Part shown: piece after piece, positions 791-63,562 of the stretch
How the letters are laid out: the number at the start of each line of letters is the position of its first letter
Position numbering within the stretch: position 1 is the first letter of the stretch
Source: a virus
Strand: one strand, 5' to 3'
Virus record (IMG/VR): IMGVR_UViG_3300044835_000075
Span: 32,001 to 96,000 of that record
DNA: 64,000 bases
Program-made: the position numbers and the translations under genes
Notes under the pieces: generated by a model
Told to the model about the DNA's origin: nothing
The model's input: the letters and a program-made list of their open reading frames with translations, nothing else
Database searches by the model: none

Positions 791-819
791 TTGACTAGCC
801 GCTGCGAGCGTGGTTTACT
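791..819 (+). promoter_or_regulatory. Repeated promoter, class I
   Basis: TTGACT-AGCC-N11-GGTT-TACT; GTTCCCG at +35. Confidence 0.75.
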
Positions 820-848
820 TACGTGGTTCCCGGAGAAAGGGGCACGCG

Positions 849-1043
849 ATGGAAGACGAGTGGACCCGCGACCCGGACGGGAGCTACGTCAACGCCACCA
901 AGTGGCGGATCAAGCTGATCGGCCGCGACTGCTGGCAGATCACCCGGCCCAACGGCTTCCGCGCCGACGCCTACGTCTACCCCACCCTGGCCGCCGCACA
1001 AGCCCGCGTCACCACCGTCTACGCCGTCCAGAACGTCGCCTAG
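849..1043 (+). CDS. hypothetical protein
   Basis: ATG with AAAGGGG RBS downstream of promoter. Confidence 0.65.
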   Translation: MEDEWTRDPDGSYVNATKWRIKLIGRDCWQITRPNGFRADAYVYPTLAAAQARVTTVYAVQNVA

Positions 1044-1056
1044 AAAGGACCACGTC

Positions 1057-1347
1057 GTGAGCAAATCCCTGGCGTACACCAAAAACCGGCACCTCGTGCT
1101 CCGCAAACTCGCCAATGAGGGTGCGACCCTGCAACGCAACGGCGCGCTTGAGCCGAGCTGGCTCGACCGCAAAATGAGCTTCCACAACAAGAACTTCACC
1201 AACACCGCGCACGACCTCGAAGTCGCCGGACTGCTGGTCTTCCCGCAGCGTGCGATGTACGGGCTGAGCCTCGGCAAGCCGAAGCTCTCCGAGGCCGGTT
1301 CGGCGCTGCTGGCGAAGTGGGACGCTGCCCGACCGTTAGTTGACTAG
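1057..1347 (+). CDS. hypothetical protein, winged-helix-like C-terminus
   Basis: AAGGA RBS; LSEAG...LLAKW motif; stop lies inside next promoter. Confidence 0.65.
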   Translation: MSKSLAYTKNRHLVLRKLANEGATLQRNGALEPSWLDRKMSFHNKNFTNTAHDLEVAGLLVFPQRAMYGLSLGKPKLSEAGSALLAKWDAARPLVD

Positions 1348-1368
1348 CCGCGCCCAGCGTGGTTTAAT
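1340..1368 (+). promoter_or_regulatory. Repeated promoter, class I (leaderless)
   Basis: TTGACT-AGCC-N11-GGTT-TAAT; ATG at +35. Confidence 0.75.
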
Positions 1369-1374
1369 TACCGA

Positions 1375-1569
1375 ATGAACTTCTCCCCGCGCCACCGCCG
1401 GTCCCTCTACCGCCTCGCCGCCGTCTCGTTCCTGCTGGCCGCTCTGCTCTGCTTCGCAGGCTGGGTGATCCACGGTCACGACCTGTACAGGCTGGTCGCG
1501 GCCGTCCTGTTCGTCATCAGCGCCCTCGGCACCAACCGGGCCGCCAAGGCCTCGCCCCAGGTCAAGTGA
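1375..1569 (+). CDS. small membrane protein
   Basis: Two hydrophobic stretches; leaderless ATG. Confidence 0.65.
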   Translation: MNFSPRHRRSLYRLAAVSFLLAALLCFAGWVIHGHDLYRLVAAVLFVISALGTNRAAKASPQVK

Positions 1570-2608: not shown

Positions 2609-2637
2609 TTGACAATCCGCCCTCACAATGGTTAGAT
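2609..2637 (+). promoter_or_regulatory. Repeated promoter, class I (variant)
   Basis: TTGACA-ATCC-N11-GGTT-AGAT directly after stop codon. Confidence 0.6.
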
Positions 2638-2705
2638 AACCGGCGAACCCCCTGTTTCTCCGCCGCGTTCGCGGCCGGAGTTTCCCCGAAAAAAGGACAC
2701 CCGCA

Positions 2706-4086: not shown

Positions 4087-4115
4087 TTGACAAGCCGGGC
4101 CGAGAGTGGTTAGCT
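4087..4115 (+). promoter_or_regulatory. Repeated promoter, class I (leaderless)
   Basis: TTGACA-AGCC-N11-GGTT-AGCT; ATG at +35 (4122). Confidence 0.75.
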
Positions 4116-4121
4116 ATCTAC

Positions 4122-4538
4122 ATGCGCAACAACGTCCAGCTCAAGCGCCAGCCCACCGGCTGCCCCGTGTGCGGTCACACCGAGCACCACCGCACCAAGA
4201 CCGGCAAATGGGCCTCCTACAACCCCGGCATCGACGTCCTCACCGGAGTCGTCGCCACCTACACGAAATGCCCCGCATCCGGGCTGAACGACGCTGGCGT
4301 CGACGAACTCTTCCGCACCTTCGAGTCCTGGGACAACCCCGGCTCCGCCACCGGCGAGACCTACCACGAACAGCTGATCGTCAAGGACAACGCCGACTCG
4401 ATCGTCCTGGCCACTGAGCTGCGACTCGGCCGGAACCTGCCCACGACGACCCTTGAGGTCCGCATCGCCCCGAAAGACGTCCCCCGGCTGCTCGCCGAGC
4501 TGACCGCCATCGCCCAAGAACGAGGCCTGATCGCATGA
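4122..4538 (+). CDS. Zn-ribbon hypothetical protein (paralog of next gene)
   Basis: TGCPVC...CPASG...LFRTF; leaderless start. Confidence 0.7.
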   Translation: MRNNVQLKRQPTGCPVCGHTEHHRTKTGKWASYNPGIDVLTGVVATYTKCPASGLNDAGVDELFRTFESWDNPGSATGETYHEQLIVKDNADSIVLATELRLGRNLPTTTLEVRIAPKDVPRLLAELTAIAQERGLIA

Positions 4539-6966: not shown

Positions 6967-6995
6967 TTGACAAGCCGCTGCCAGCGTGGTTGACT
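6967..6995 (+). promoter_or_regulatory. Repeated promoter, class I
   Basis: TTGACA-AGCC-N11-GGTT-GACT; GTTCCG at +35. Confidence 0.75.
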
Positions 6996-7033
6996 AATGG
7001 TGTTCCGCCCGAAGAGCACCGAGAGGACACCAC

Positions 7034-8486: not shown

Positions 8487-8870
8487 GTGGAAAGGGTTGC
8501 TGTGGAACGAAATGAGACGTTCGACATCCTGGCCGGGCAGGTCGGGCGGGACGTGAAACTGACGGATGCGCTGGGTGCGACGATGCGCGGCGTGCTGCTG
8601 TACGTGTCGGCGCCAGGCTGGGATGGCCGGGTTGGTGCCTCGATCGAGGGTCCGCAGGTGGAGGTGATGTTCGGCGCGTCGGTGGCGGGTTCGGCTGGCC
8701 GCCGGTCGGGGCCGGTGGCTGACGCGGTGTCGGCCAGCGATTGGCGGATGACGCTGAGCACCGACGGCGGCGAGTTCGAGGATGTGGAGGGGTTGCAGGG
8801 GTCGTCGAACCACGGGCGGACGTGGTTCTCCGTGGCGGTCCCTCCGCAGATAGTTGACAAGCCGCTCTGA
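8487..8870 (+). CDS. hypothetical protein
   Basis: Fills the gap; G-rich codons; runs into next promoter; start uncertain. Confidence 0.45.
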   Translation: MERVAVERNETFDILAGQVGRDVKLTDALGATMRGVLLYVSAPGWDGRVGASIEGPQVEVMFGASVAGSAGRRSGPVADAVSASDWRMTLSTDGGEFEDVEGLQGSSNHGRTWFSVAVPPQIVDKPL

Positions 8871-8882
8871 GCGTGGTTGACT
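8854..8882 (+). promoter_or_regulatory. Repeated promoter, class I
   Basis: TTGACA-AGCC-N11-GGTT-GACT; GTTTCG at +35. Confidence 0.75.
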
Positions 8883-8919
8883 AACGGTGTTTCGCACGAG
8901 AGACACCGAGGAGAACCCC

Positions 8920-9334: not shown

Positions 9335-9610
9335 GTGGAACTCAAGTCGATCACGTTCACCAAGGACGAGCAGGACGGCGACGTCGTGCCCGAATCCGCC
9401 GTCTTCGAGCTGACCATCCAGGAGATCGCCTACCTCGCGACCCTGCTCGGCCAGCAGACCGGCATCACCGCCAGTGCCGTCATGCCCGGCGGCGACGGCG
9501 TCAACTCCAGCATCTGGAACTCGCTCAACGGCGATGTCATCAACCGCTACTACGACGACGGCATCGACGACTGGAAGCTCGCCAAGTTCCTCACGCGCGC
9601 CGATAGTTGA
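9335..9610 (+). CDS. hypothetical protein
   Basis: AAAGGA RBS before GTG; TGA stop inside TTGACA box. Confidence 0.65.
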   Translation: MELKSITFTKDEQDGDVVPESAVFELTIQEIAYLATLLGQQTGITASAVMPGGDGVNSSIWNSLNGDVINRYYDDGIDDWKLAKFLTRADS

Positions 9611-9635
9611 CAAGCCGCTCCCGGCATGGTTAGCT
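9607..9635 (+). promoter_or_regulatory. Repeated promoter, class I
   Basis: TTGACA-AGCC-N11-GGTT-AGCT; GTACCG at +35. Confidence 0.75.
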
Positions 9636-9669
9636 ATCCATGTACCGCGCACAACACGAGGAGCCCGCC

Positions 9670-10026: not shown

Positions 10027-11526
10027 CTACGCAATCAGCCGGACCTCGGTTCCGGACTTGATCCCCAAGTTGGGCATCAACTCGACACCTGCCCACACGC
10101 TGGCGTCGAGCCGGTCGGGGCTCGTCTGCCCGGACCCCGGCACCCAGGCCTGCCATTGGTCTTCGAGGTGCTTGAGCGACCCGACGACGTGCGCCCGGTG
10201 CTGCTGCCACACGCCGCCGACCGGCTCGGCGCGGGTCCGCTTCCCAACGCTGGCGTGCACGTTCTTCAAGTGCGGGACCTTGTGCCCCTCGGCGCGCGCG
10301 ACCATCTGAGCCATCGTAAAAACGAGGTCTCCGCCCTGGTTTACCTCGGCGGTGATGCAGTCCGCCCCCCAGTCCTCGGCGGCGACCAGCGCGCGGCGCG
10401 CCCACGTCTCCGGCGTCGCCCGCAGCGAGCAGTCCTCAAGCCAGTAGATGTGTGCCGAGTTCGCCAGCGACTTCGGCGCGGTGTGCGGCGGCTCCCAGTC
10501 GATCGGCGCAGGCCCGATCCCGGCGACCATGATGCCGCACTCGTCTGAGTCCTCGGTCGAGGTGACGGCCGGGTCGACGGCGACGACGACACGCCAGAAA
10601 TCCGGCACCTGGGGCGCCAGCAGGCGCGTGTGCTCGATGATGTCGAGCGTGATCAGCGCGCCCGGGACCGCGCGCAGCAGCTCCCCGTCGAGTTCCTGGC
10701 GCCCGAGGGCGGTGCCTTCGAACTCCTCCTCGATCTCCTGCAACCACTCGGCCGAGAGGTTGGCCGCGTTGTCGCGGGTCCGGCCGCGCGTGAGGTGGGT
10801 GTTCGCGGCAAGGCCGCCGAGGATCGAGCCCCCGGCGAGCAGGAAGGCGTCGAGCAGCTTGACGAGAACCTTGTTGCCGCGCGTCGGCGTAGTGGTGATG
10901 ACGATGCGGGGGTCGCCGATTCGGGTGGCGAACTTGATGCCCTCGTTCCACACCTTGGGGTCGCGCCACGAGCCGACCTCGTCGCACCACACGCCGCGCA
11001 GGTTCCAGCCTCGGATGCGGTCGGGCGCGTCGGCGGAGCCGAGCACGATGCGCGACCCGTTCTTCAGGGTGATGACGTACTCGGACCGGTTGTAGTCGCG
11101 GATCTCGGAGTCCGGGCCGGTCTCGCCGCCGAGCGCGACGAGCAGGCCTGACGGGCCCTCGACGCAGATCTTCTTCGCGTCGCCGAGTGTGGGGGCGACG
11201 ACCGCGTAGTCGCCGACTTCGGTCAGCGCCCATTCGGCGACGACGTTGGCGCCGGTGAACGTCTTGCCCCATCCTCGACCGGCCATGATCAGCCAGTGCC
11301 GCCAGCGGCCGCACGGCGGGATCTGCTCGGGGCGGGCGGTCTTGCGCCAGGGCCGGGGGATGGGCGGCACGAGTTCGTGCAGCGCCATCTTCTGGATGCC
11401 TGCCCAGATCTCGTCTTCGAGGTCGTAGAGCAGGGGGTCGGCAAGGTCGACGTAGCCGGACAGCGTGACGGGGTCCATGCGGGGCGCATCGGCCCATAGC
11501 TGGGCGAGTTCGCTATCGGTGAGCAT
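10027..11526 (-). CDS. terL: phage terminase large subunit
   Basis: Walker A AGRGWGKT, Walker B WCDE, TTTP, nuclease VDPA...EVNQGG...DRLDA; start MLTDSEL overlaps upstream stop. Confidence 0.93.
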   Translation of the reverse strand: MLTDSELAQLWADAPRMDPVTLSGYVDLADPLLYDLEDEIWAGIQKMALHELVPPIPRPWRKTARPEQIPPCGRWRHWLIMAGRGWGKTFTGANVVAEWALTEVGDYAVVAPTLGDAKKICVEGPSGLLVALGGETGPDSEIRDYNRSEYVITLKNGSRIVLGSADAPDRIRGWNLRGVWCDEVGSWRDPKVWNEGIKFATRIGDPRIVITTTPTRGNKVLVKLLDAFLLAGGSILGGLAANTHLTRGRTRDNAANLSAEWLQEIEEEFEGTALGRQELDGELLRAVPGALITLDIIEHTRLLAPQVPDFWRVVVAVDPAVTSTEDSDECGIMVAGIGPAPIDWEPPHTAPKSLANSAHIYWLEDCSLRATPETWARRALVAAEDWGADCITAEVNQGGDLVFTMAQMVARAEGHKVPHLKNVHASVGKRTRAEPVGGVWQQHRAHVVGSLKHLEDQWQAWVPGSGQTSPDRLDASVWAGVELMPNLGIKSGTEVRLIA

Positions 11527-12813: not shown

Positions 12814-12846
12814 GGTGTCCTCCGGGTTGCTGGGCGGAACAACGTA

Positions 12847-12875
12847 AGTAAACCACTCTGGGCGCGGCTAGTCAA
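12847..12875 (-). promoter_or_regulatory. Repeated promoter, class I
   Basis: TTGACT-AGCC-N11-GGTT-TACT; GTTCCG at +35; inside a 16-bp inverted repeat. Confidence 0.75.
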
Positions 12876-13994: not shown

Positions 13995-14030
13995 GGTCTT
14001 CTCCTCGGGTTCGTCGGGCGGAACGTAGTT

Positions 14031-14059
14031 AGCTAACCACGCTCCGCCCGGCTTGTCAA
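14031..14059 (-). promoter_or_regulatory. Repeated promoter, class I
   Basis: TTGACA-AGCC-N11-GGTT-AGCT; GTTCCG at +35. Confidence 0.75.
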
Positions 14060-14387: not shown

Positions 14388-14444
14388 GGAATATTCCTCT
14401 CATCGTTGCCCGTCCGCGCGGTGCGGACGGCGCGGGACCCCGAT

Positions 14445-14473
14445 AGTTAACCACGTCGGGCGCGGCTTGCGAA
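14445..14473 (-). promoter_or_regulatory. Repeated promoter, class I (degenerate -35)
   Basis: TTCGCA-AGCC-N11-GGTT-AACT; GTCCCG at +35. Confidence 0.55.
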
Positions 14474-16151: not shown

Positions 16152-16186
16152 GGTAACTCCTTCGGGCTGTCGAGCGGAACACCAAT

Positions 16187-16215
16187 AGATAACCATGCTC
16201 AGCGGGGCTTGTCAA
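16187..16215 (-). promoter_or_regulatory. Repeated promoter, class I
   Basis: TTGACA-AGCC-N11-GGTT-ATCT; GTTCCG at +35. Confidence 0.75.
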
Positions 16216-16856: not shown

Positions 16857-16885
16857 TTGACAAGCCGGGGCGGGCATGGTTTACT
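16857..16885 (+). promoter_or_regulatory. Repeated promoter, class I (leaderless)
   Basis: TTGACA-AGCC-N11-GGTT-TACT directly after TAG; ATG at +35. Confidence 0.75.
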
Positions 16886-16891
16886 TATCTC

Positions 16892-17125
16892 ATGACCACG
16901 AACGAGACCCCCGCCCCGGCCCGCACCGTCCGCAACGACCTCCCCGTCATCGCCGCCGCCCTCGTCATCCTGGCCCTCGTCTTCATCTTCCCGGCCACCC
17001 GCCACATCGTCGTCCCCGCACTCACCACCGCCTGGACCGTCCTGTTCAACTACCTCGTCACCGCCGTCGGCACCGTCATCGGCGGCGTGGTCCTCCTGTT
17101 CGACGCCGTCACCGGACTGCTCTGA
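16892..17125 (+). CDS. membrane protein
   Basis: Leaderless ATG; hydrophobic. Confidence 0.65.
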   Translation: MTTNETPAPARTVRNDLPVIAAALVILALVFIFPATRHIVVPALTTAWTVLFNYLVTAVGTVIGGVVLLFDAVTGLL

Positions 17126-17972: not shown

Positions 17973-18302
17973 ATGCACCTCGACAAAAAGCCCACCGTCA
18001 CCCTGACTCCCGGTACCTACGTCAAGCACATGCGCTGCTGGTACCTGCTCACCGGCGTCCTCGCGCACGGCGAAGGCGAGCACCGGTTCCAGGCGCTCAC
18101 GCCGGAAGGTGTGGTCGTGGCGATCAGCATCTACCAGGGCATGACCGAAGTCGGCGCGCCGAACTGGCTGCCCGGCCCGTTCACCCCCGCGACGCTGCGC
18201 TTGCGGGCCCGCAAGGATGACGAGAAAGCGGTGATGTACGCCGAGGCCGCGCGGTCGCGGCGCACGTTGGCCGACCGGCTGGACCCGCTCGGCCGATCGT
18301 AA
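17973..18302 (+). CDS. hypothetical protein
   Basis: Operon-contiguous ORF. Confidence 0.6.
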   Translation: MHLDKKPTVTLTPGTYVKHMRCWYLLTGVLAHGEGEHRFQALTPEGVVVAISIYQGMTEVGAPNWLPGPFTPATLRLRARKDDEKAVMYAEAARSRRTLADRLDPLGRS

Positions 18303-18312
18303 TCCGGATACG

Positions 18313-18353
18313 ACAGAAGCCCCTCCCGACTGCTGCACGGGAGGGGCTTCTGT
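18313..18353. terminator. bidirectional terminator
   Basis: ACAGAAGCCCCTCCCG-N9-CGGGAGGGGCTTCTGT between convergent genes. Confidence 0.7.
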
Positions 18354-18362: not shown

Positions 18363-19106
18363 CTACGCCCTAGGGACGGGGCAGGTCACATCCCCGTTTT
18401 GTTTAAGCAGGTAGGTAAACTGCTTAACCGTCATCCGGAACCGGCCCTTGTCGCCCCAGGTGTCCGACCACGAGTTGTCGAACGTGAGCACCCCGGCCGA
18501 CAGGGTCTTGCCGGGCTCGTACTCGCGACACATGATCTCGTGGCCACCCTCGACCTTGCCGGACAGGGAGACGAATCCCTTCGAGTCGGGCTGGTCCATG
18601 CCGGAGAGCCACACCGTGCCGAAGATGAACGGGGCGCGTTCGAGCGCGGCCAGCGCGGCCGAGACGCTGAACGCGTGCTCGTAGCGGTCAATGATGCCTC
18701 GGTTTTTCAGGACCGTAGCGATGGCCAGACCGTTCGATCCGGTGTCCATCGGGGGATAACTTCCCGGCTGGTCGTCGGCCTTGGTGGCGTCGCTGTAGAG
18801 CTTGACGGCGTAGGCCTCATTGAGTGAGAGCCCGCGTACCGGGGTCGTATCGAAGAACGGTTCGCAGCCGAGCATCCCGGTGCCCGCGTTGCCGGTGCAG
18901 GATCCGAGGTTGCCCTGGTCGAGGATCGGGGTGCGGCGCTCGTGCAGGATGGCGACCGGCTTCGGCGCGGACGCGTGCATGACGGGGTAGGCGAGTGATC
19001 GGGGGTCGTGTCTGACGTAGCGGCCGAGGGCCATTCCTTCGGGGCGCGGACGGCCCGGGATCAATGCGACAATTGGGTCGTGACCTGGGATTTCTTCGAG
19101 GTTCAT
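18363..19106 (-). CDS. papain-like (C1) cysteine peptidase
   Basis: DQGNLGSCTG, GGHEI, NSW...WG..G catalytic motifs. Confidence 0.85.
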   Translation of the reverse strand: MNLEEIPGHDPIVALIPGRPRPEGMALGRYVRHDPRSLAYPVMHASAPKPVAILHERRTPILDQGNLGSCTGNAGTGMLGCEPFFDTTPVRGLSLNEAYAVKLYSDATKADDQPGSYPPMDTGSNGLAIATVLKNRGIIDRYEHAFSVSAALAALERAPFIFGTVWLSGMDQPDSKGFVSLSGKVEGGHEIMCREYEPGKTLSAGVLTFDNSWSDTWGDKGRFRMTVKQFTYLLKQNGDVTCPVPRA

Positions 19107-19158
19107 GGGTTCAGCGTCGCATCGGTTGCGGGCATCTGGTCGGCGGCGCGCCGGTGAG

Positions 19159-19187
19159 TTGACTAGCCGCCGTCATGGTGGTTTACT
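19159..19187 (+). promoter_or_regulatory. Repeated promoter, class I
   Basis: TTGACT-AGCC-N11-GGTT-TACT; GTTCCG at +42. Confidence 0.7.
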
Positions 19188-19230
19188 TACCATCCTACCC
19201 GTTCCGCATCCCGAGCCCGAAAGGTCCGCA

Positions 19231-19665
19231 ATGGACGCCTTCTTCAAGTTCATCACCGACAACCTCGGATGGATCATCGTCCTCCTGTTCGTGTTCGGCG
19301 GCGCCATCCTGGAGGTCTTCTCCGACTGGATCGGCGCACTCGTCAAAAGCCTGTCCGGGCGCGGGAAGAACCGGCAACTCAAGGCCTCGATCAAAGCCAA
19401 GGACGCCGAACTGGCGCGGGCGCACGACCTGCTCACCGCCATGGGGCCGGGGCGGGCGATCGTGATGCCGCCGCCGGATCCCCGCATCGAGACGGCCGCG
19501 CGGATGGCTCGTCTGCTCGACAAGGTGCAGGAGGCCGACACCGCGCTACCGCAGCTGAACAGCGAGTTGCGCGCGCAGATCGACGCCGAGCTTGAGCAGT
19601 TCCACGTCCAGCCTGACCCGCTGGTCATGCCCGACTGGTCCGCCCGGAAGCATCGGCGCCGGTAG
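19231..19665 (+). CDS. membrane-anchored protein
   Basis: AAAGG RBS; N-terminal TM then helical region. Confidence 0.65.
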   Translation: MDAFFKFITDNLGWIIVLLFVFGGAILEVFSDWIGALVKSLSGRGKNRQLKASIKAKDAELARAHDLLTAMGPGRAIVMPPPDPRIETAARMARLLDKVQEADTALPQLNSELRAQIDAELEQFHVQPDPLVMPDWSARKHRRR

Positions 19666-19694
19666 TTGACAAGCCGGGCTCACGGTGGTTTACT
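19666..19694 (+). promoter_or_regulatory. Repeated promoter, class I (leaderless)
   Basis: TTGACA-AGCC-N11-GGTT-TACT directly after TAG; ATG at +35. Confidence 0.75.
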
Positions 19695-19700
19695 TACCTC

Positions 19701-20195
19701 ATGACCGAGACGCGCACCGCCCCCGCCACCGCCCCTCGATTCCGCTACATCGGAACGACAGACGAGTGCGTGGATTGCGAGCGCCCCGGCTGCCCGAAGG
19801 TCAACCTCAAGGCCACCATCGTGCTGATGATGCTCGACGCGGAAGGCAACGACGACGACGTCACCTACTACGGCTCGACCTGCGCGGCCAAAGTGCTCGG
19901 CATGACCGGCCGGGGGCAGGGCGCGAAGGTGCTCGACAAGGCCCGCTTCGCCCACCAGAAGACCATTGAGGCCGCGAAAGACGCGCGCCGGATGCTCGGC
20001 CACTACGGCCTTCCGGAGACCGGTCAGCCGGACGTCGAGGCCATGATGACCGCCGTCGACCGCTTCCAGGACGCGCACCGAGTGGCCATCTGGTTCAACG
20101 AGAAGACGCGCGGCGACTGGTTCGACATGGTCCGCGACATGCTCGCGCGGCGACAGGCGCAGATCGCGGACGCGAAGCTGATCGGCTTCGCCTGA
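19701..20195 (+). CDS. Zn-binding hypothetical protein
   Basis: C..C...C.K.NLK...YGSTCA; leaderless. Confidence 0.7.
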   Translation: MTETRTAPATAPRFRYIGTTDECVDCERPGCPKVNLKATIVLMMLDAEGNDDDVTYYGSTCAAKVLGMTGRGQGAKVLDKARFAHQKTIEAAKDARRMLGHYGLPETGQPDVEAMMTAVDRFQDAHRVAIWFNEKTRGDWFDMVRDMLARRQAQIADAKLIGFA

Positions 20196-20252
20196 TCCAC
20201 CCGGCCGGGGGCATCCGCCTCCGGCCTCGCTTCCCCAAACCCGGAGGGCATC

Positions 20253-20528
20253 ATGCACACCGCTTATATCAACGTCTCCCGGCACTACAGTCTGCGCGGC
20301 GACATCCGCACCAACCGGGAAATCCAGGTCGAGTCCGGTCCCGACGAGGGCCGCACCCAGACCGATGACGCCGCAACGTCGATCCAGGTTTTCAGCTGCA
20401 CCACCGGTGCCCCGATCGGCGGGCAGAGTGTGCTCGACCTTGCGCAGCTGACCGAGTTGCGCGACGCGCTGAGTGCGCGAATCGCCGAGTTGGCTCCAGC
20501 TGCCGAACCCGCCCGCGACGCCGACTGA
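20253..20528 (+). CDS. hypothetical protein
   Basis: GGAGG RBS. Confidence 0.6.
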   Translation: MHTAYINVSRHYSLRGDIRTNREIQVESGPDEGRTQTDDAATSIQVFSCTTGAPIGGQSVLDLAQLTELRDALSARIAELAPAAEPARDAD

Positions 20529-20749
20529 TGGGCGCGCTCAACCGCCGCCACCGAACAGCCGACATCGACAAGATCACGTTGAGCGCGGAGACGCTACTGG
20601 TGCTGCCCGCCGTCGCCGACTTCCTCGACGAGACAGGCAAGGGGATGCGGCTCAAGGCTGAACGGGAAGGCCTCTCGCTGGCCGCCGACATCCTGCGCGC
20701 CGAGTTGCTCGGCCCCGCGCTCGGCCTGTCTGCCCCGGGCGCCGACTGA
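20528..20749 (+). CDS. hypothetical protein
   Basis: TGATG overlaps both ends. Confidence 0.55.
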   Translation: MGALNRRHRTADIDKITLSAETLLVLPAVADFLDETGKGMRLKAEREGLSLAADILRAELLGPALGLSAPGAD

Positions 20750-21153
20750 TGGCCGTGACGTTCGCCGCGTTCATGCTCGCGATGCTCACCGCCCACCAGC
20801 TCGGCGACCACTGGGTGCAGACCGACCACCAGGCCAACGGGAAGGGCGCCCGGGACTTCACCGGCGCCGTCCTGTGCGCGCGTCACGTCGGCACCTACAC
20901 GGCCACGACGGCCGTGTTCGGGGCGCTGGCGTGGTGGGTGCTCGACCTCGACATCACCGTCGTCGGATTCGTCGCCGGGCAGGCCGTGTCGGCGCTCACG
21001 CACTACTGGGCTGACCGGCGCTTCACGCTCAAGTGGCTTGCCCGCAAGACTCGGCACGGCGCGTACTACGACCGGGGCGGCGCATACCAGCTCGACCAGG
21101 CCTACCACTGGTCGTGGCTGTTCGTCGCGGCCCTGCTGACCGCTGCCCTGTGA
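20749..21153 (+). CDS. DUF3307-family membrane protein
   Basis: H..GD..VQTD, H...D.R, DQ..H motifs with TM helices. Confidence 0.8.
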   Translation: MAVTFAAFMLAMLTAHQLGDHWVQTDHQANGKGARDFTGAVLCARHVGTYTATTAVFGALAWWVLDLDITVVGFVAGQAVSALTHYWADRRFTLKWLARKTRHGAYYDRGGAYQLDQAYHWSWLFVAALLTAAL

Positions 21154-21156
21154 ATG

Positions 21157-21200
21157 CGGCAAACCCCCCTCGACCGAGACCAGGTGAGGGGGGTTTGTCG
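21157..21200. terminator. bidirectional terminator
   Basis: CGGCAAACCCCCCT...AGGGGGGTTTGTCG. Confidence 0.6.
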
Positions 21201-21207
21201 TCGGGTG

Positions 21208-21471
21208 TTACGCGTCGGGGGAGTCCGGCGCGTCGGGGGTGGGGTTCGCCGCAGGCGCGAGGCCGGAGAGCTTCGCGGTCTCCGCGCGGATCGCGTCGGC
21301 GGTCTCGCTGTCGATATTCTCGTCGGCTGCGACGATGGCGTCGATGCGCTGCCCGAGGGCGACGATGGCGGTGTCCTGCTCGGCAATGGCGTCCTGGGCT
21401 TCGGACATGTGGCGCTCCAGTCTGTCGATACGGTGGAAGATCCTGATTTTGCTGAGCAATCGCTCGAACAC
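21208..21471 (-). CDS. small coiled-coil protein
   Basis: Leaderless GTG 6 nt after TATCGT; alternative start at MSEAQD. Confidence 0.55.
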   Translation of the reverse strand: MFERLLSKIRIFHRIDRLERHMSEAQDAIAEQDTAIVALGQRIDAIVAADENIDSETADAIRAETAKLSGLAPAANPTPDAPDSPDA

Positions 21472-21522
21472 GGTGCCACGATACTCCGCCCTGGCCTGCG
21501 GGAAAGCCTTCGACGCGCCGAG

Positions 21523-21551
21523 TTGACAAGCCGCTGCCAGCATGGTTGAAT
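21523..21551 (+). promoter_or_regulatory. Repeated promoter, class I
   Basis: TTGACA-AGCC-N11-GGTT-GAAT; GTTCCG at +35. Confidence 0.75.
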
Positions 21552-21586
21552 AATGATGTTCCGCAGACAACCCGAGGAGAACCGCC

Positions 21587-21844
21587 GTGGCCACCGAAAC
21601 CGCCCAGTACCTGACCATCGACGCCACCACCACCGTCAACGACGTCGGCCCCGAGACCATGGACGCCCTCGAAAAGGCCACCCTCGACATCGTCGACGGC
21701 TGGTACGAGGGCGTACAGATCGACTGGGAAGACGTCTGGGACCGCCTCGACAACGCCGACCTCCCCGACGACCGCAAACTCGACCTGATCGTCATCCACG
21801 GCCCCGTCGTCAACGCCCTCAAGCGCCGAATCTACGGCCGCTGA
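21587..21844 (+). CDS. acidic hypothetical protein
   Basis: GAGGAG RBS. Confidence 0.7.
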   Translation: MATETAQYLTIDATTTVNDVGPETMDALEKATLDIVDGWYEGVQIDWEDVWDRLDNADLPDDRKLDLIVIHGPVVNALKRRIYGR

Positions 21845-21876
21845 ACAGCACCCGACCTCGACCGAAAGAGACCGTC

Positions 21877-22125
21877 GTGACCACCTGCTTGTGGCACCGC
21901 GCCGTGCCCGCCGTCGTCATCTGGGAGACCCAGGCCTGCCAGCGGGTGCCGCTCTGCGGCGACTGCCTCACCGAATGGCGCAAGCGGTCCGCGACCACGC
22001 CGGAGACCGCGAAGATCTTCGGCTACCGCAAGCTCACCCATCTCAACCAGGACAACGAGGTGTCCGGCCAGATCGGCCGCCCCGTCCCGCTCACCTCCGC
22101 GCGCAAGCGCCGACCCCGAAAGTGA
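21877..22125 (+). CDS. hypothetical protein
   Basis: GTG start; C..H...LC..C. Confidence 0.5.
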   Translation: MTTCLWHRAVPAVVIWETQACQRVPLCGDCLTEWRKRSATTPETAKIFGYRKLTHLNQDNEVSGQIGRPVPLTSARKRRPRK

Positions 22126-22379
22126 ACCCCGCCATGCTCCGCGCCGTCATCATGTTCACCACCGCAGCCGCCGCCGTCCTCGCGCTCACGGCCTGCCAGC
22201 CGAACGCCCGCGACAACTCCGACTCTGTGATCGGCCAGGTCAATGGCGGCCCCGGGCTCAAAGGCGACGCCTACGTCGAATGCGTCAACCCGGTGAACGT
22301 CTTCCACGTCTCCGTGGACCCGTCCCGCATCCACCTCATGCACGAGGGCGGCGTCTGCCCGGACGGACGGCACTGGTGA
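22122..22379 (+). CDS. lipoprotein
   Basis: LTAC lipobox; GTGA overlap. Confidence 0.6.
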   Translation: MNPAMLRAVIMFTTAAAAVLALTACQPNARDNSDSVIGQVNGGPGLKGDAYVECVNPVNVFHVSVDPSRIHLMHEGGVCPDGRHW

Positions 22380-22546
22380 GCCTGCCCATCACGCTCACCC
22401 AAGAGCAGATGGACATCGTGAACGACGTCGTGATCCTCGACCCGGACCCGCCGTGGCGCGACAAGGTGCTCTCGATCCCCGGCCGCCACATCGTGCGCGT
22501 CGACACCGTCGAGGAGTCGACGCCCTACCTCGAAGGCCTGCTCTAG
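22376..22546 (+). CDS. small hypothetical protein
   Basis: GTGA overlap; converges on tail gene. Confidence 0.5.
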   Translation: MSLPITLTQEQMDIVNDVVILDPDPPWRDKVLSIPGRHIVRVDTVEESTPYLEGLL

Positions 22547-24270: not shown

Positions 24271-24282
24271 GGGGTCTCCTGC

Positions 24283-24492
24283 TTACGGCTCGGGGTCGGG
24301 TTCCGGCGTGACGATGTTCAACTCGACACCGTACGGAACGGTGCGGGTGGTGACGCCCTGGTCGAGTGCCCACCTCACCATGAGGTCGACATGAGTGGGG
24401 CCGAACTGGGTTTCGGTGACGGTGTAGACGAGGTTGTCGTCGGCGTCGAGCAGCTGGTCGCCGACCAGGAAGTCCTCAGTGAGTTTCGACAT
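24283..24492 (-). CDS. small hypothetical protein
   Basis: In tail cluster; protein-like composition. Confidence 0.55.
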   Translation of the reverse strand: MSKLTEDFLVGDQLLDADDNLVYTVTETQFGPTHVDLMVRWALDQGVTTRTVPYGVELNIVTPEPDPEP

Positions 24493-24541
24493 GGGCTCAT
24501 CATCAAGTACGCCAGGTCAGCGGCCGCATTCGGCGCGCCGG

Positions 24542-25234
24542 TCACGCGGCGAAGAAGAACGACGACGGTCGGAACGTCGGTCCGTTCGGCGGCTCGGCTT
24601 CCGTCGCCGGAGTGGTGGCGTTGGCGACCAGGTGGTGCACGTTGCCGGAGTGGTCGGTGAGGTCTGTCGCGACCGTGAGTGGCCAGTTCGCGAACAAGGC
24701 CGCTGTGACAACCGGCGTCGTCGACGCCCATTCGGCCTCGATCTGCGCTTGCGTGAGCACACTGGACCAGATACGGGCCTGCGACAGCCGCATGTCGCAG
24801 TACTCGGTCGCGTCCGTCGGCGAACGGGCGCCGAAAGTGCAGCCGGTCGGCGTCCCGCCGGGGGTGATCGTCGCCGTGTAGAGGACGGTCGTGCCGGTGG
24901 CGCCGATCATGTACAGCTTGCCGGACGTGCCGGTCAGCGTGTAGCCGACGCGGTACCAGTTGCCTGCCGTCATCGTCGGACCCGTCGCGGTACCCGAGGC
25001 CGAGTAGAGGCCCATCGCGGTGCCGGAGGCCAGCGCGCCTAGGGTCAGCGTGGTGTTCGCGCCCGCCCCGTTGTGAATGCGGAGCAGGTCGGACCAGCCG
25101 TTGGGGCTGGCCTGCGCGCCGGTGACGAAGTAGACCCACGCGGTGAAGGTGATGCCCGATCCGGGCGGCGGGATGGCGGCCGTACACGTGAGCCGGTTCG
25201 CGCCGCTGGTTGCCTTGTCGAATCGGACGCTCAT
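24542..25234 (-). CDS. LamG/concanavalin A-like domain virion protein
   Basis: T...WV, GNWYRV, ARIWSSVLTQAQI, DHSGNVHHL patterns. Confidence 0.7.
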   Translation of the reverse strand: MSVRFDKATSGANRLTCTAAIPPPGSGITFTAWVYFVTGAQASPNGWSDLLRIHNGAGANTTLTLGALASGTAMGLYSASGTATGPTMTAGNWYRVGYTLTGTSGKLYMIGATGTTVLYTATITPGGTPTGCTFGARSPTDATEYCDMRLSQARIWSSVLTQAQIEAEWASTTPVVTAALFANWPLTVATDLTDHSGNVHHLVANATTPATEAEPPNGPTFRPSSFFFAA

Positions 25235-25235
25235 G

Positions 25236-28529: not shown

Positions 28530-28574
28530 GCGCGGAAGACTACGGGCGGCCGGGGGCCGAGAGGGTGAGGCGCG

Positions 28575-28940: not shown

Positions 28941-29164
28941 GGGGTGTCGCCTTTCAGGGTCGGGAAGTCCTCGCACTGGTGTGCCTGGAACGCTTCTTCG
29001 AGGGCCGCGAGGGCGCGGTCCTGTTCGGTGTCCCCTTCCGCTTCGGTGAGCTGTTCGGCGTCGACAAGGTGCGTCCACGCGCAGTCTGCGCAGCGGGCGC
29101 CGGTCGAGTCCTTGTCGACGACGTAGGAGCCGTGCCGCCGGGGCTGCTTCTCGGGTTCCGTCAT
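28937..29164 (-). CDS. small Zn-binding protein
   Basis: CADC...H.C; overlap coupling. Confidence 0.55.
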   Translation of the reverse strand: MTEPEKQPRRHGSYVVDKDSTGARCADCAWTHLVDAEQLTEAEGDTEQDRALAALEEAFQAHQCEDFPTLKGDTP

Positions 29165-31300: not shown

Positions 31301-31337
31301 GGGCGCGGCCTCCGGGGTGTCGGTGCGGAACATGTTT

Positions 31338-31366
31338 AGTAAACCACGTTCGGCGCGGCTAGTCAA
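31338..31366 (-). promoter_or_regulatory. Repeated promoter, class I (divergent pair)
   Basis: TTGACT-AGCC-N11-GGTT-TACT; GTTCCG at +35. Confidence 0.75.
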
Positions 31367-31382: not shown

Positions 31383-31411
31383 TTGACAAGCCGCGCTCAG
31401 AGTGGTTGACT
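31383..31411 (+). promoter_or_regulatory. Repeated promoter, class I (leaderless, divergent pair)
   Basis: TTGACA-AGCC-N11-GGTT-GACT; ATG at +35. Confidence 0.75.
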
Positions 31412-31417
31412 TACATC

Positions 31418-31654
31418 ATGAACGAAACGCGCACCGCCACCCGGGCCACCGCCGAGTACCTCGGACGCAAGCTCACCGCCAAGCCCGTGAAGAACAAGAC
31501 CACCGGCGCCCGCCACTTCGAGATCCGCTGCAACGGACGCTTCTGCTGGAACGGCACCGAAACCACCGCCGACGCCGCGCTCGACATGGCCAAGAGGTAC
31601 GTCGACGAGGCCGAGCTTCGCCCCGCTGCCTACCCGGACCTCCGCGCGGCTTGA
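31418..31654 (+). CDS. hypothetical protein
   Basis: Leaderless ATG. Confidence 0.65.
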   Translation: MNETRTATRATAEYLGRKLTAKPVKNKTTGARHFEIRCNGRFCWNGTETTADAALDMAKRYVDEAELRPAAYPDLRAA

Positions 31655-33312: not shown

Positions 33313-33352
33313 GGCGGGTTCTCCTCGGGGGTCTCTCGTGCGGTACCCCTGA

Positions 33353-33382
33353 ATGATAGCCGACGCTTGAGCGGCTTGTCAA
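33353..33382 (-). promoter_or_regulatory. Repeated promoter, class II
   Basis: TTGACA-AGCC-N11-GGC-TATCAT; GTACCG at +36. Confidence 0.8.
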
Positions 33383-33788: not shown

Positions 33789-33823
33789 GCGGGGCTCCCT
33801 GGTCTCTCGTGCGGTACCCCTGA

Positions 33824-33853
33824 ATGATAGCCGACGCTTAAGCGGCTTGTCAA
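33824..33853 (-). promoter_or_regulatory. Repeated promoter, class II
   Basis: TTGACA-AGCC-N11-GGC-TATCAT; GTACCG at +36. Confidence 0.8.
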
Positions 33854-35353: not shown

Positions 35354-35563
35354 CCGACGGGTGTGTTTCGCCGTGAAGTTCCCACCGTCATGAACTCGCT
35401 GCGCACCGCTGCGTCCCGAACCCAACCTCGCACTGTGTGGAGCGTACGCGGCTCGCCGGGGCACAACGGGTGTTGCAGTCTCACGGGTGCCGGTCGTGGC
35501 ACACCCTGACCTTGTGTCGGAACCGGTGAGGCCTGGGGGACCCTCTCCGGCCCGACACCGCAG

Positions 35564-35593
35564 ACACTAGCCGGTGTCGTGGCGGGAAGTCAA
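35564..35593 (-). promoter_or_regulatory. Class II-like promoter heading the ncRNA/tRNA cluster
   Basis: TTGACT-N15-GGC-TAGTGT; left AGCC half-site absent. Confidence 0.65.
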
Positions 35594-37576: not shown

Positions 37577-37606
37577 TTGACTAGCCCCCCACACTCCGGC
37601 TACTCT
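37577..37606 (+). promoter_or_regulatory. Repeated promoter, class II
   Basis: TTGACT-AGCC-N11-GGC-TACTCT; GTTCCG at +37. Confidence 0.8.
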
Positions 37607-37644
37607 TACCCCCGTTCCGTACTCCGACCTGAGGGAAGATCCAC

Positions 37645-45079: not shown

Positions 45080-45109
45080 TTGACTAGCCGCTCTCCTCTC
45101 GGCTAAGGT
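45080..45109 (+). promoter_or_regulatory. Repeated promoter, class II
   Basis: TTGACT-AGCC-N11-GGC-TAAGGT; GTTCCG at +37. Confidence 0.8.
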
Positions 45110-45147
45110 GCTCAGTGTTCCGCACCGCCGAGAGGAGAGCGTTTTTC

Positions 45148-49869: not shown

Positions 49870-50306
49870 GCGACAACCAGCGCCGGGAGGTGCTCAAGCA
49901 CAGGGTCGAGCACATCGTGCCGACCCCGCCGCCCTACGGCGGCACCATCAAGGACGTGAACCTGGCGATCCACCATGCGTTGCAGGAGATCAAGGCGCGC
50001 GGCGGCCGGATCGACTACGACGACGTGCTGCGCTTCGAGACCCGCGACGACGCGATCGTGGTCTTCTACGAGTACGACGAGGTGCTGCCGGATGTCTCGG
50101 CGGCGTCGAGCGACGACGATCTGTTTCAGGAGACTCACCCGGATGCCCGGGGGCGTGTGGCGTGGCCGGTGATGCCGGATGGCGAGTCCGCGCACGCGTC
50201 GGTGTCGTGCTGCGGTAGGGCTCCGTGTGTTGCCGGAGCATCTCGCTGGGTGCATCAGATGACGGGGCATGACGGGGTGTGGGTGCCGCCGCGCCAAATT
50301 GACTAG
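49866..50306 (+). CDS. hypothetical protein
   Basis: GGAGG RBS; TAG stop inside TTGACTAG of next promoter. Confidence 0.6.
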   Translation: MSDNQRREVLKHRVEHIVPTPPPYGGTIKDVNLAIHHALQEIKARGGRIDYDDVLRFETRDDAIVVFYEYDEVLPDVSAASSDDDLFQETHPDARGRVAWPVMPDGESAHASVSCCGRAPCVAGASRWVHQMTGHDGVWVPPRQID

Positions 50307-50328
50307 CCGCTGCTCTAGCGGCTAGAAT
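50299..50328 (+). promoter_or_regulatory. Repeated promoter, class II
   Basis: TTGACT-AGCC-N11-GGC-TAGAAT; GTTCCG at +36. Confidence 0.85.
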
Positions 50329-50361
50329 GCAGGCGTTCCGTACCGAGAGAGGAGAGGTCCC

Positions 50362-55208: not shown

Positions 55209-55238
55209 TTGACTAGCCTGCTCTGCGTCGGCTAGTAT
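55209..55238 (+). promoter_or_regulatory. Repeated promoter, class II
   Basis: TTGACT-AGCC-N11-GGC-TAGTAT; GTTCCG at +37. Confidence 0.8.
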
Positions 55239-55280
55239 CTTTTCAGTTCCGTAACCAACCCCCTACGAGAAGGACCGCAC

Positions 55281-56846: not shown

Positions 56847-56876
56847 TTGGCAAGCCGTTAAGATGACGGCTAGGAT
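56847..56876 (+). promoter_or_regulatory. Repeated promoter, class II (variant -35)
   Basis: TTGGCA-AGCC-N11-GGC-TAGGAT; ATTCCG at +37. Confidence 0.7.
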
Positions 56877-56915
56877 TCTGATCATTCCGCCCCGAACCCC
56901 GATGAGGAGCACTCC

Positions 56916-57182
56916 GTGCCCAGTCCCCTGAACAAGACCGAATCCCGGGTGAGCGCCCTGACCGAGGTCAAGGCCGGACTCGTGAGCTATGACCCCACCG
57001 TGGGCGAATACACCGTCACCGACGGCGACCACGAGACCGAGCAGGCGGGTGGCGCCCGGCGCCGCACGTACGCCGAACTGCGCACCCAGGCGCTCATTGC
57101 GCCCCGTGACCCGCAGGCTGTGTCGATCGTTGACCTCACCGAAGAGGGTCAGGAACTGGCCTCCACCTGGAGTGTTGACTAG
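56916..57182 (+). CDS. winged-helix-like small protein
   Basis: GAGGAG RBS; EL...LI...LTEEG....W; stop inside next promoter. Confidence 0.6.
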   Translation: MPSPLNKTESRVSALTEVKAGLVSYDPTVGEYTVTDGDHETEQAGGARRRTYAELRTQALIAPRDPQAVSIVDLTEEGQELASTWSVD

Positions 57183-57204
57183 CCACTACTAGATCGGCTA
57201 GCAT
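57175..57204 (+). promoter_or_regulatory. Repeated promoter, class II
   Basis: TTGACT-AGCC-N11-GGC-TAGCAT; GTTCCG at +37. Confidence 0.8.
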
Positions 57205-57246
57205 TCTCCTTGTTCCGCTAGATCATCTTCGAGAGGTAGCCCACCG

Positions 57247-61452: not shown

Positions 61453-62360
61453 GCATGTCGTACGCGCCTCCCCCGCCGCCGGTCGCGGACGGTGTCCTGG
61501 TGGCCGACCGCTACGCGATGCTGGGTGACCTCGCCCGGGGCCGCTACGGGGCCTGCTGCATGTGCAACGGGACCTGCTACACGTGGTGGTCGGACCGGGC
61601 GCCGTCCGGCTACGTCCCGCTGCACGAGGGGTGCGTGCCCCGGCTGGTCGAGCACTGGACGAAGTTCGTCGCGGACGGCGGTGCGGAGCCCGAGAGGACT
61701 TTCGTGCCGCCGTCCGGCCGCCGTGGCGCCTATGCGCGCCGGGCGGCGACGGTGGACACCGCGCCAGCGTCCGCCCCGCAGCAGCCCGCCCGGGTCGTGA
61801 CCGCTGGCGCGGTGCTTCCTGATCGTTTCATCCCGGGGCCGTTCTGGCTCCCTGGGGACGATCACCTCACACCGTGGACGGGACTGCTGGAGACCGCGAC
61901 CGGGCACACGGTGTGCCCGGCGGGGGCGAATGTGGCGCACGCCGAGAAGACGTACGCGTTCTACCGGTCGCAGCGGATCGTGTCCTACAACACCCCGGTC
62001 GTCGGGGGTGCGTTGATCGCACCTGACGGTTCGGTGACGCGGTCGTGGGGTTCGGTGCCGGTGGTGGGTTCGCCGCGTTGGGTGTCGGTCTCGATCCGCA
62101 GCGAGTGGGGCATGTGCCCGGGATGCGGTGAGTTGAAGTGGCCGGGGTCGTGGCGTACGGACCGCAACGTCTGCATGGGGTGTCAGAGTGCCCGCGAGGT
62201 CGCAGACCCGCGAGAGTGGCCGTATGAGACGCCGCATCCCGGGCAGCAGGCCGTACCGGATACCTTTATCACGACGAAAAAGGTGACGCCTCCCGCGTCG
62301 GCGCGGTTGGCGCCGAGCTTGAACCGAGGACGTTTGACTAGCCGCCGCAAGTCGGGCTAA
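61449..62360 (+). CDS. Cys-rich hypothetical protein
   Basis: GGAGG RBS; CxxC clusters; TAA stop is the -10 box of next promoter. Confidence 0.6.
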   Translation: MSMSYAPPPPPVADGVLVADRYAMLGDLARGRYGACCMCNGTCYTWWSDRAPSGYVPLHEGCVPRLVEHWTKFVADGGAEPERTFVPPSGRRGAYARRAATVDTAPASAPQQPARVVTAGAVLPDRFIPGPFWLPGDDHLTPWTGLLETATGHTVCPAGANVAHAEKTYAFYRSQRIVSYNTPVVGGALIAPDGSVTRSWGSVPVVGSPRWVSVSIRSEWGMCPGCGELKWPGSWRTDRNVCMGCQSAREVADPREWPYETPHPGQQAVPDTFITTKKVTPPASARLAPSLNRGRLTSRRKSG

Positions 62361-62363
62361 TCT
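62334..62363 (+). promoter_or_regulatory. Repeated promoter, class II
   Basis: TTGACT-AGCC-N11-GGC-TAATCT; GTTCTG at +36. Confidence 0.75.
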
Positions 62364-62404
62364 ATCCTCGTTCTGCTGTATCCGACCCTGCCAGAAGGTG
62401 CCTC

Positions 62405-62728
62405 ATGGCCCGACTCACCCATTCTCGCGATGGCCGCCATCCCGGGACCGACCGCCTCCTGCTCGTCGGCGTGGCCTTCGGATGCACCGCCTCAGTTCCC
62501 TTGTGGATCGGCCTGGCGTACTTCCTCGGACTCTGCGAGATCCCGATGTCGGCGTGGTCCCTGCTCAGCGCGTCGGCCATCGCGGCATCGCTGGGTGCGG
62601 TATCCATCCGGTCGTCGGTTCTGCTGTTCGACAAGGTATTACGGCCCCGGGTGTTCGACCTTGAGCAGCGCAAGCACGAAATAGTTCCGTTTCATTATTC
62701 GACAAGGGAGACTCATCAGGATGTCTAA
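62405..62728 (+). CDS. membrane protein
   Basis: Two TM helices; GAAGG RBS. Confidence 0.55.
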   Translation: MARLTHSRDGRHPGTDRLLLVGVAFGCTASVPLWIGLAYFLGLCEIPMSAWSLLSASAIAASLGAVSIRSSVLLFDKVLRPRVFDLEQRKHEIVPFHYSTRETHQDV

Positions 62729-63536
62729 AAATATTCGGTTATACTTGGACTTCGAGACAACAGGTCTTTCTCCTGGAAAAGAAACCATTCTCGAACTCGC
62801 GTACTGCATCACTGACGATCAGCACAGGTTGCTTACTCCGATCCGCCAGCGCTTGACAAACCTTGCCCCTCCACTCAAGCGCGAGGCTGGTCCTCGTGGG
62901 CCTTTCGGTTTCGCGTTCGACACGACCAAATCCGAAGACTGGGAGAACCCTGAGTTCTTCGATACTCGGAACAAGTCCAATCCCAAGATCGTGATGGATA
63001 TGCATCAGAATTCGGGACTTAAGGCTGACCACTTGGCCGTGGATCCGAACGCTATTCTTACTCATCCTCGTGATTTCGAGCGAATGTTTCTGGACGACCT
63101 GGTCGATGTCAAAAATCGGTTCGACTACGACATCGGAAAGATCATCCTGTCCGGTGATGGCGTGAGCCATTTCGACAACTACTTGCTTGACGCTTTGTGG
63201 CCCGACCGCTTCCCGCTCCGGCCGGACTTCGATCACGACATGGCGTACTGGTACGGCGATGTCTCCATCGCGCGGCGCCTGGTGCCGCCGTCCGTGCTCA
63301 CCGCTGGCCGGAAGTGGGCGGAGAGCGATGAGTCGCCGTTCTCCATGCTCGCCGAGGAGATGGTCGCGGACATCTCCATGGGCCCGGACGACTTCGAGGT
63401 GCAGGACGAGAAGTCGAACCTGTGGACCTTTGACCGCAACGGCGCGGTGCCGCACCGGGCGGCGGACGACCTGGTTGTGTCGATCCTGGATGCCCGGATA
63501 CTCGCCAAGATCGACCTGTTTTCCCAGAAGATTTGA
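62721..63536 (+). CDS. DEDDh exonuclease, oligoribonuclease-like
   Basis: LDFETTGL...ILELA, MH.NSGL, G..V.HFD, HRA.DD. Confidence 0.8.
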   Translation: MSKNIRLYLDFETTGLSPGKETILELAYCITDDQHRLLTPIRQRLTNLAPPLKREAGPRGPFGFAFDTTKSEDWENPEFFDTRNKSNPKIVMDMHQNSGLKADHLAVDPNAILTHPRDFERMFLDDLVDVKNRFDYDIGKIILSGDGVSHFDNYLLDALWPDRFPLRPDFDHDMAYWYGDVSIARRLVPPSVLTAGRKWAESDESPFSMLAEEMVADISMGPDDFEVQDEKSNLWTFDRNGAVPHRAADDLVVSILDARILAKIDLFSQKI

Positions 63537-63562
63537 CAAGCCGGTACAGGATCGGCTAATTT
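63533..63562 (+). promoter_or_regulatory. Repeated promoter, class II
   Basis: TTGACA-AGCC-N11-GGC-TAATTT; GTTCCG at +36; contains upstream TGA. Confidence 0.8.

Follow-up and report, generated by a model that had tools for sequence, protein, structure and literature searches.

Phages that rely on the RNA polymerase of their host usually time their genes by switching the promoter element that is read. The temporal classes are set by sigma factors or polymerase-binding proteins, such as gp28 and gp33/34 in SPO1, AsiA/MotA and gp55 in T4, and gp39/gp76 in the Thermus phage P23-45. Repeated regulatory units are known in actinophages, as in the early promoters of phiC31 with their conserved inverted repeats and in the stoperators of cluster A mycobacteriophages. 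To our knowledge, few phage transcription switches are well understood in Actinobacteria. Structural and genetic work on the sigma70 family has established that the A at promoter position -11 is flipped into a pocket of sigma region 2, where it nucleates melting, and that it is the most critical base. Here we describe a family of repeated promoters found in a window of 64,000 nucleotides, which corresponds to bases 32001-96000 of the 107,374-bp virus contig IMGVR_UViG_3300044835_000075 (G+C 67.7%). They open most of the gene blocks of this phage and fall into two classes: judged from sequence, class II is a canonical host promoter, and class I a conserved, non-canonical variant of the extended -10 promoter that has T at -11.

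The copies were located by a regular-expression scan and a core scan. In the window, class I is represented by 17 copies of TTGACW-AGCC-N10-TGG-TTNNNT, with a 17-bp spacer, and class II by 11 copies of TTGACW-AGCC-N11-GGC-TANNNT (that is, CGGC-TANNNT), with an 18-bp spacer (Table 1). With at most one mismatch allowed, the core TTGACWAGCC-N11-GGYT occurs 26 times in the window; the expectation from shuffled sequences is 0.04. The -35 hexamer TTGACW is present in nearly all copies, partly by construction, since the search used that core. When offsets are counted from the first T of this hexamer, the start signal, which is either GT(T/A)CCG or the ATG of the first gene, lies at 35 in class I and at 36 or 37 in class II. 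The scans recovered all the copies, hexamers and spacings listed in a preliminary description of this DNA, together with the two start-signal positions (+35 versus +36/37) given there.

Five of the 17 class I copies in the window are leaderless (1340, 4087, 16857, 19666 and 31383). From the last T of the -10 hexamer to the start signal or leaderless ATG there are 6 nt in class I and 6-7 nt in class II, the usual spacing of -7 and +1. Leaderless ATGs of either class conform to it, here as well as in the relatives. Since leaderless ATGs keep the distance of the start signal, the -10 register is fixed independently of the motif. The register thus predicted is T-12 A-11 N N N T-7 for class II and T-12 T-11 N N N T-7 for class I, the latter preceded by T-15 G-14 G-13, the textbook TG of an extended -10. 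From the same geometry we infer the transcription start sites of both classes. The predicted transcripts of both classes open with a conserved GT(T/A)CCGC (window 826-832, 7002-7008, 50335-50341 and most other copies), which is also kept in the relative G001 and in metagenome contigs, and whose position is taken by the ATG in leaderless units. As to its role, an initial transcribed signal and a 5' RNA element are both conceivable.

The pooled statistics were obtained from 194 unique copies belonging to this phage, its 101-kb relative G001 and 56 soil metagenome contigs. The metagenome scan required the core, GGYT and GTTCCG, and these 56 soil contigs supplied 130 further unique copies. The pool consists of 104 copies of class II (GGC-TANNNT), 69 of class I (GG-TTNNNT), 11 of CGGT-TANNNT, two ambiguous copies and eight others. 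TANNNT at an 18-bp spacer is therefore present in the 104 GGC and the 11 CGGT copies, and the existence of the latter implies that C/T at -13 is not the discriminating base. In class II, a C precedes GG in 94 copies and positions -10 to -8 are unconstrained. Class I lacks the A at -11, with T in 69/69; as the preliminary description had claimed, this holds in the register set by the start signal, and where the start signal lies at offset 35, T occupies -11 in 53 of 54 copies (the exception is CGG-TAAGCT). In addition, TGG precedes the hexamer (T-15 G-14) in 65/69 class I copies versus 6/104 in class II.

Class I also has preferences of its own. Position -9 is A in 54/69 copies and -8 is C in 62/69; -10 tolerates any base (T 32, A 22, C 9, G 6), and only one copy departs from A or T at -6/-5. 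The resulting consensus is TGG-TTNACT-WA, with more information in the spacer than in class II, and the invariant positions (-12, -11 and -7) fall where a sigma70-type -10 has them. We looked for a normal TANNNT elsewhere in class I, as a hidden canonical -10, and none was found at any spacer of 15-21 bp in 65/69 copies. Alternative registers at 18 or 19 bp were also rejected, as they would place the start inside the ATG or leave a discriminator of 4-5 nt, with no TANNNT gained. Class I is best regarded as a distinct element under selection, and not as a decayed class II, because it is conserved in other phage contigs and has its own conserved bases. These class-specific bases suggest that something reads them. 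It is conceivable, although unlikely, that TGG-TTNACT is a -10 element in its own right, read by host SigA that a small phage protein would re-program in region 2, or by an unrecognised sigma-like factor. If so, it would represent a new mode of -10 recognition, conserved across an uncultured lineage of soil actinophages.

The reading that we favor, with a probability of about 45%, is that the two classes are separately controlled regulons and that class I depends on an auxiliary factor. Both classes would be built for the principal sigma of the host (SigA/HrdB type), given the parts that they share: the consensus -35 TTGACW, the AGCCG after it and the GG at a fixed distance. Transcripts would start at the G of GTTCCGC or at the A of the leaderless ATG. 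Class II, with a canonical actinobacterial -10 after an 18-bp spacer, would fire with the host RNA polymerase alone; in mycobacterial promoters, 18-bp spacing and TANNNT are the norm (PMC1616969). Since the -11 A is needed for melting, class I, with T at that position, would be opened poorly by SigA alone, and its output would depend on a putative auxiliary factor of the phage or of the host. The result would be two separately controllable regulons in this phage lineage. The two motifs, with their geometry, conservation and clustering, are seen directly in the sequences; SigA usage and the need for a factor are what we infer, and it is plausible, though unproven, that class I depends on such a factor. 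Two near-identical promoter types, differing at the base which sigma needs most for opening, are thereby maintained in a lineage of uncultured soil actinophages. If class I does need a helper, its discovery would reveal a new control, or a bypass, of -10 recognition in Actinobacteria, and the two classes would offer a compact orthogonal promoter pair for Streptomyces or mycobacterial engineering.

The distribution along the contig bears on the idea of regulons. Inside the window, all class I copies lie at or left of 31383 and all class II copies at or right of 33382, and the perfect segregation by position that the preliminary description had noticed holds there. Outside it, the copies in contig 800-31,500 (eight of class II, ten of class I) are interleaved, though clustered. 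The order of classes over the whole contig is II×5, I×7, II×1, I×1, II×2, I×19 and II×11, that is, 7 runs against approximately 23 expected under random placement (27 class I and 19 class II copies; simple arithmetic). The clustering is block-wise and strong, and the perfect split is an artefact of the window boundaries. Some class I copies are paired back to back, one on each strand, and only 16-17 bp separate their -35 hexamers (window 31331-31418 and contig 20931/20947); such pairs are also present in the metagenome contigs L232, L235 and L243.

A comparison with relatives was possible through a pattern scan of viral contigs, which yielded G001 (IMGVR_UViG_3300049005_000030), a complete 101-kb genome with terminal repeats. 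It has 41 proteins in common with this phage, at 35-67% identity and in conserved order, and its 19 promoter copies are every one of class II. The fragments G002 and G005 (the latter IMGVR_UViG_3300044835_000092, 27 kb) carry both classes on each, and class I and class II are found together on many independent soil contigs. Among the 15 first-gene families with at least three members, nine are uniform in class (four always class I and five always class II), and two families of the replication arm are class II in 5/5.

Several observations weigh against separate regulons with a dedicated factor. Three orthologous operons are class I here and class II in G001: first, the terminase operon taken together with the leaderless gene (window 19701); second, that of WhiB; and third, the gene located at contig 19687-20565. 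Furthermore, six of the 15 first-gene families mix classes. These mixed families and class-switched operons imply that the classes are at least partly interchangeable. Virion genes are found behind both classes, and class I, with its perfect -35, its TG motif and an optimal spacer of 17 bp, might need nothing beyond the host polymerase for activity. The search for a factor gave Sigma70_r2 and r4 no match at E<=1 in this phage, G001, G002 and G005, and no RbpA gene was found in this phage. The sole recognisable sigma-binding protein, WhiB (contig 18442-18735, minus strand), is itself encoded in an operon behind a class I promoter, and G001, free of class I, has a WhiB gene too. Finally, a scan of 30 small class-II-driven proteins found no DNA-binding or sigma-like family.

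Part of this evidence would fit a simpler explanation, in which host SigA reads class I unaided: the -35, the 17-bp spacer and the TG would offset the loss of the -11 A, and the classes would set only constitutive strength or open-complex kinetics, with no temporal switch. The strong association of T-15 G-14 with T at -11 looks like compensation, and in mycobacteria TGN can mask what the -35 and other promoter elements contribute (PMC1616969). The failure to find a phage sigma or RbpA, and the fact that orthologous promoters swap class between phages with no visible change in gene content, point the same way. However, a loss of strength alone fails to explain the constant T at -11 and the A at -9 and C at -8 that are exclusive to class I. 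The -11 A is, as generally known, the most critical base for melting, and the block-wise clustering and the single-class families suggest regulons. On balance, unaided reading by the host enzyme seems to us somewhat unlikely. If it should hold, these phages would provide a natural, replicated test of how the -35, spacer length and TG compensate the loss of the -11 A.

The results of the factor search also bear on whether a different sigma serves class I, either a phage sigma so divergent that Pfam models missed it or one of the host's alternative sigmas, with region 4 like that of SigA and region 2 altered. Class I shows a sigma70-type invariant pattern (-12, -11, -7) with T at -11 and its own preferences at -9 and -8; in addition, 27/30 of the small class-II-driven proteins have no Pfam family and could hide a factor. 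A sigma too divergent for the Pfam models could have been missed, and since the contig is incomplete the factor gene could lie off it. Nevertheless, among Sigma70_r2, r4 and r4_2 the only exception to the lack of matches at E<=1 was a sub-threshold 16.7-bit Sigma70_r4_2 stretch inside an intein-bearing head gene, and the -35 and TG motif of class I are of the principal-sigma type. We know of no actinobacterial alternative sigma with a TTGACA / TTNACT consensus, and the ECF, SigF and other alternative-sigma consensus sequences were ruled out by spacing and -35 sequence. A different sigma is thus very improbable in our view.

The spacer contains a further feature that both classes share in part. 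The AGCCG right after the -35 and the CGGCT (class II) or TGGTT (class I) near the -10 make up a 5-bp inverted repeat, whose outer five base pairs are nearly invariant and whose nine intervening bases vary. In mycobacterial mutagenesis, changes at -31 to -27 barely affect the host polymerase (PMC1616969), and therefore the conserved AGCCG is unexplained by the host polymerase alone; this hints at an extra protein. One could then think of an operator difference between the classes: AGCCG-N9-CGGCT, in many copies GACTAGCCG…CGGCTAGTC, would form, within the class II spacer, a two-fold symmetric site to which a dimeric regulator of the phage, e.g. a repressor, binds, and class I (AGCCG-N9-TGGTT), which keeps the left half-site only, would escape it or bind it differently. 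The near-invariance of the outer pairs with a variable interior is what such a site would show, and the host polymerase is not expected to read -29 to -25 (PMC1616969). Fully palindromic, two-way copies exist (window 62334/62364, contig 12387/12417 and G001 88689/88719). There is also a putative binder of the dyad, the lone candidate seen: a 190-aa protein encoded behind a class II promoter (L002:8615-9187 = contig 24615-25187, plus strand), with two weak MerR-like helix-turn-helix matches and conserved in G001 at 46% identity. Nonetheless, these matches are below the Pfam cut-offs and no cognate protein was identified; the half-site centres are 14 bp apart, which is awkward for a simple dimer; the inner symmetry of the dyad is no greater than in shuffled controls; and the loss of a half-site does not predict the extra conserved positions of class I. 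For these reasons we regard an operator difference as doubtful. The spacer dyad was also considered as a hairpin or terminator, and this was discarded, as the inner pairs are no more complementary than shuffled pairings. The class II copy at window 62334-62370 is itself nearly palindromic (TTGACTAGCC…GGCTAATC).

Returning to the favored reading of two regulons, the genes behind each class were compared. Class II precedes the replication and nucleotide-metabolism arm, with NUDIX, SNF2 helicase, exonucleases, phosphoesterase, primase/polymerase and DNA helicase, in agreement with what had been proposed, but the portal/MuF/protease operon is also class II. Class I precedes the terminase operon, the operon of minor-tail and beta-helix tailspike genes, the UvrD-like helicase, WhiB and many small open reading frames (ORFs). 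There is no clean early/late split by class. The preliminary description had also suggested a search of the rest of the genome for sigma, WhiB or RbpA genes; only WhiB turned up, in the setting described above. Its interpretation is partly supported as a whole: the temporal switch that it proposed is possible, and its positional split, phage sigma and functional division are unsupported.

We also considered class I as the late promoter of the capsid and tail genes, and rejected it. Between a class I promoter of G005 and the capsid gene there lie three small ORFs, then a strong terminator and a separate conserved element. The pre-capsid element GGTACTGACCGGCGCGG is single-copy and is also present in G001 and G002; in these three related phages it takes the form GGT(A/G)CTGACCGGCGCG, approximately 45 nt upstream of the start codon of the major capsid gene. 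The main late operon seems to use a third kind of signal, and this element may be a third, late-specific promoter or leader element. A class-II-like promoter with the variant core TTGACTTGCC sits at the start of the tail sheath gene and faces in the antisense direction (L206:11741 in G005, plus strand, and L059:9456 in G002, minus strand); no ORF lies behind it, and the downstream sequence is conserved between the G005 and G002 contigs.

Table 1. Promoter copies and associated elements (window numbering unless a contig or genome is named).
Element	Coordinates	Strand	Remarks
Class I, TGG-TTTACT	791..826	+	start signal GTTCCC, offset 35
Class I, TTTAAT	1340..1375	+	leaderless ATG, offset 35
Class I, TTAGAT	2609..2644	+	one core mismatch (ATCC)
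Class I, TTAGCT	4087..4122	+	leaderless ATG, offset 35
Class I, TTGACT	6967..7002	+	upstream of UvrD-like helicase gene
Class I, TTGACT	8854..8889	+	
Class I, TTAGCT	9607..9642	+	
Class I, TTTACT	12840..12875	-	operon whose last gene is the terminase large subunit (10027-11526)
Class I, TTAGCT	14024..14059	-	
Class I, TTAACT	14438..14473	-	-35 degenerate (TTCGCA)
Class I, TTATCT	16180..16215	-	
Class I, TTTACT	16857..16892	+	leaderless ATG
Class I, TTTACT	19159..19194	+	
Class I, TTTACT	19666..19701	+	leaderless ATG; G001 orthologue has class II leaderless promoter
Class I, TTGAAT	21523..21558	+	
Class I, TTTACT	31331..31366	-	minor-tail and beta-helix tailspike operon (22543-31300)
Class I, TTGACT	31383..31418	+	leaderless; back to back with the 31366(-) copy
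Class II, CGGC-TATCAT	33346..33382	-	
Class II, TATCAT	33817..33853	-	near-duplicate of the 33382 copy
Class II, TAGTGT	35557..35593	-	core degenerate (TTCC); faces tRNA-like region
Class II, TACTCT	37577..37614	+	NUDIX gene and 16-gene block
Class II, TAAGGT	45080..45117	+	
Class II, TAGAAT	50299..50335	+	upstream of SNF2 helicase and exonuclease genes
Class II, TAGTAT	55209..55246	+	
Class II, TAGGAT	56847..56884	+	-35 TTGGCA
Class II, TAGCAT	57175..57212	+	upstream of primase/polymerase operon
Class II, TAATCT	62334..62370	+	near-palindromic; minus-strand mirror copy at 62364
Class II, TAATTT	63533..63569	+	upstream of exonuclease and helicase genes crossing the window end
Class II outside the window	contig 809(-), 6628, 12417, 13779, 14683, 21470, 24538, 26095		
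Class I outside the window	contig 15468, 15838, 16522, 19083, 20631, 20931, 20947, 22453, 27597, 31487		
Terminator and pre-capsid element	L207:4150-4330 = G005 ~18150-18330; G001 27108; G002 2153	- (G005)	

With respect to its origin, the contig encodes terminase, portal, MuF-like head protein, baseplate and tail-fibre proteins and endolysin, as well as primase/polymerase, SNF2 and UvrD helicases and a WhiB protein. From this content of terminase, portal, head, tail, endolysin, replication and WhiB genes, its source is a large tailed phage of an actinobacterium. The one DNA run listed for the contig comes from a soil metagenome. The best terminase match among phages is approximately 38% identical, with no close cultured phage, and a megablast of one replication gene against a phage collection gave no match. 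Short promoter queries against cultured phages returned chance matches only; the one suggestive match, in the Streptomyces plasmid-phage ZL12, was dismissed as the motif is absent from ZL12. Likewise, a class I scan of genome contigs produced lone chance matches in unrelated bacteria, the motif was not found in the more distant terminase relatives L209-L211, and a literature search with motif strings retrieved only unrelated primer sequences and nothing resembling the motif in the searchable literature.

The last 146 bases of the contig (in window numbering ~75229-75374, beyond the window end) are 99.3% identical to bases 1-146 of G005, which carries major capsid, neck, sheath, tube, tape-measure and minor-tail genes and is syntenic with G001 23-46 kb. 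This terminal overlap implies that the contig is incomplete and the genome larger; the phage genome is probably at least 134 kb. It was also observed that G005 ends within an ORF of at least 2654 aa (L207:5081-13045 = G005 19081-27045, minus strand), and that the present contig begins within the ORF that lies behind its class II promoter at 809(-) (L001:3-767, minus strand). The two could belong to opposite ends of a single giant virion gene, whose counterpart in G001 lies at ~23-25 kb.

As in SPO1, T4 and P23-45, a single phage here has two promoter classes, set apart by one recognition element and arranged in blocks. Unlike those systems, this phage yielded neither a sigma nor a known polymerase-binding protein, it retains the -35, its classes are not cleanly early or late, and one relative is without the second class. 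The resemblance to the phiC31 promoters and the stoperators lies in the tens of copies of one conserved unit, spread across the genome and oriented with transcription. The differences are the sequence itself, the location of the dyad inside the -35/-10 spacer, the existence of two -10 variants, and that no repressor was identified.

Among promoters of the principal sigma, the rrnAP3 type is presumably an example of SigA/HrdB recognition akin to class II. The general SigA/HrdB form (TTGACN-N17-18-TANNNT; mycobacterial, PMC1616969) and class II are alike in the -35, the 18-bp spacer, T-12/A-11/T-7 and a purine at the predicted start, 6-7 nt downstream. What departs from that norm is that dozens of phage copies also conserve AGCCG (-29 to -25), a CGG that precedes the hexamer and, at +1, GTTCCGC, and that class I breaks the -11 A rule. 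With the extended -10 (TGn) promoters, class I shares T-15 G-14 in the exact register. However, the classical extended -10 keeps A-11 and often has a poor -35, while class I combines a perfect -35 with T at -11.

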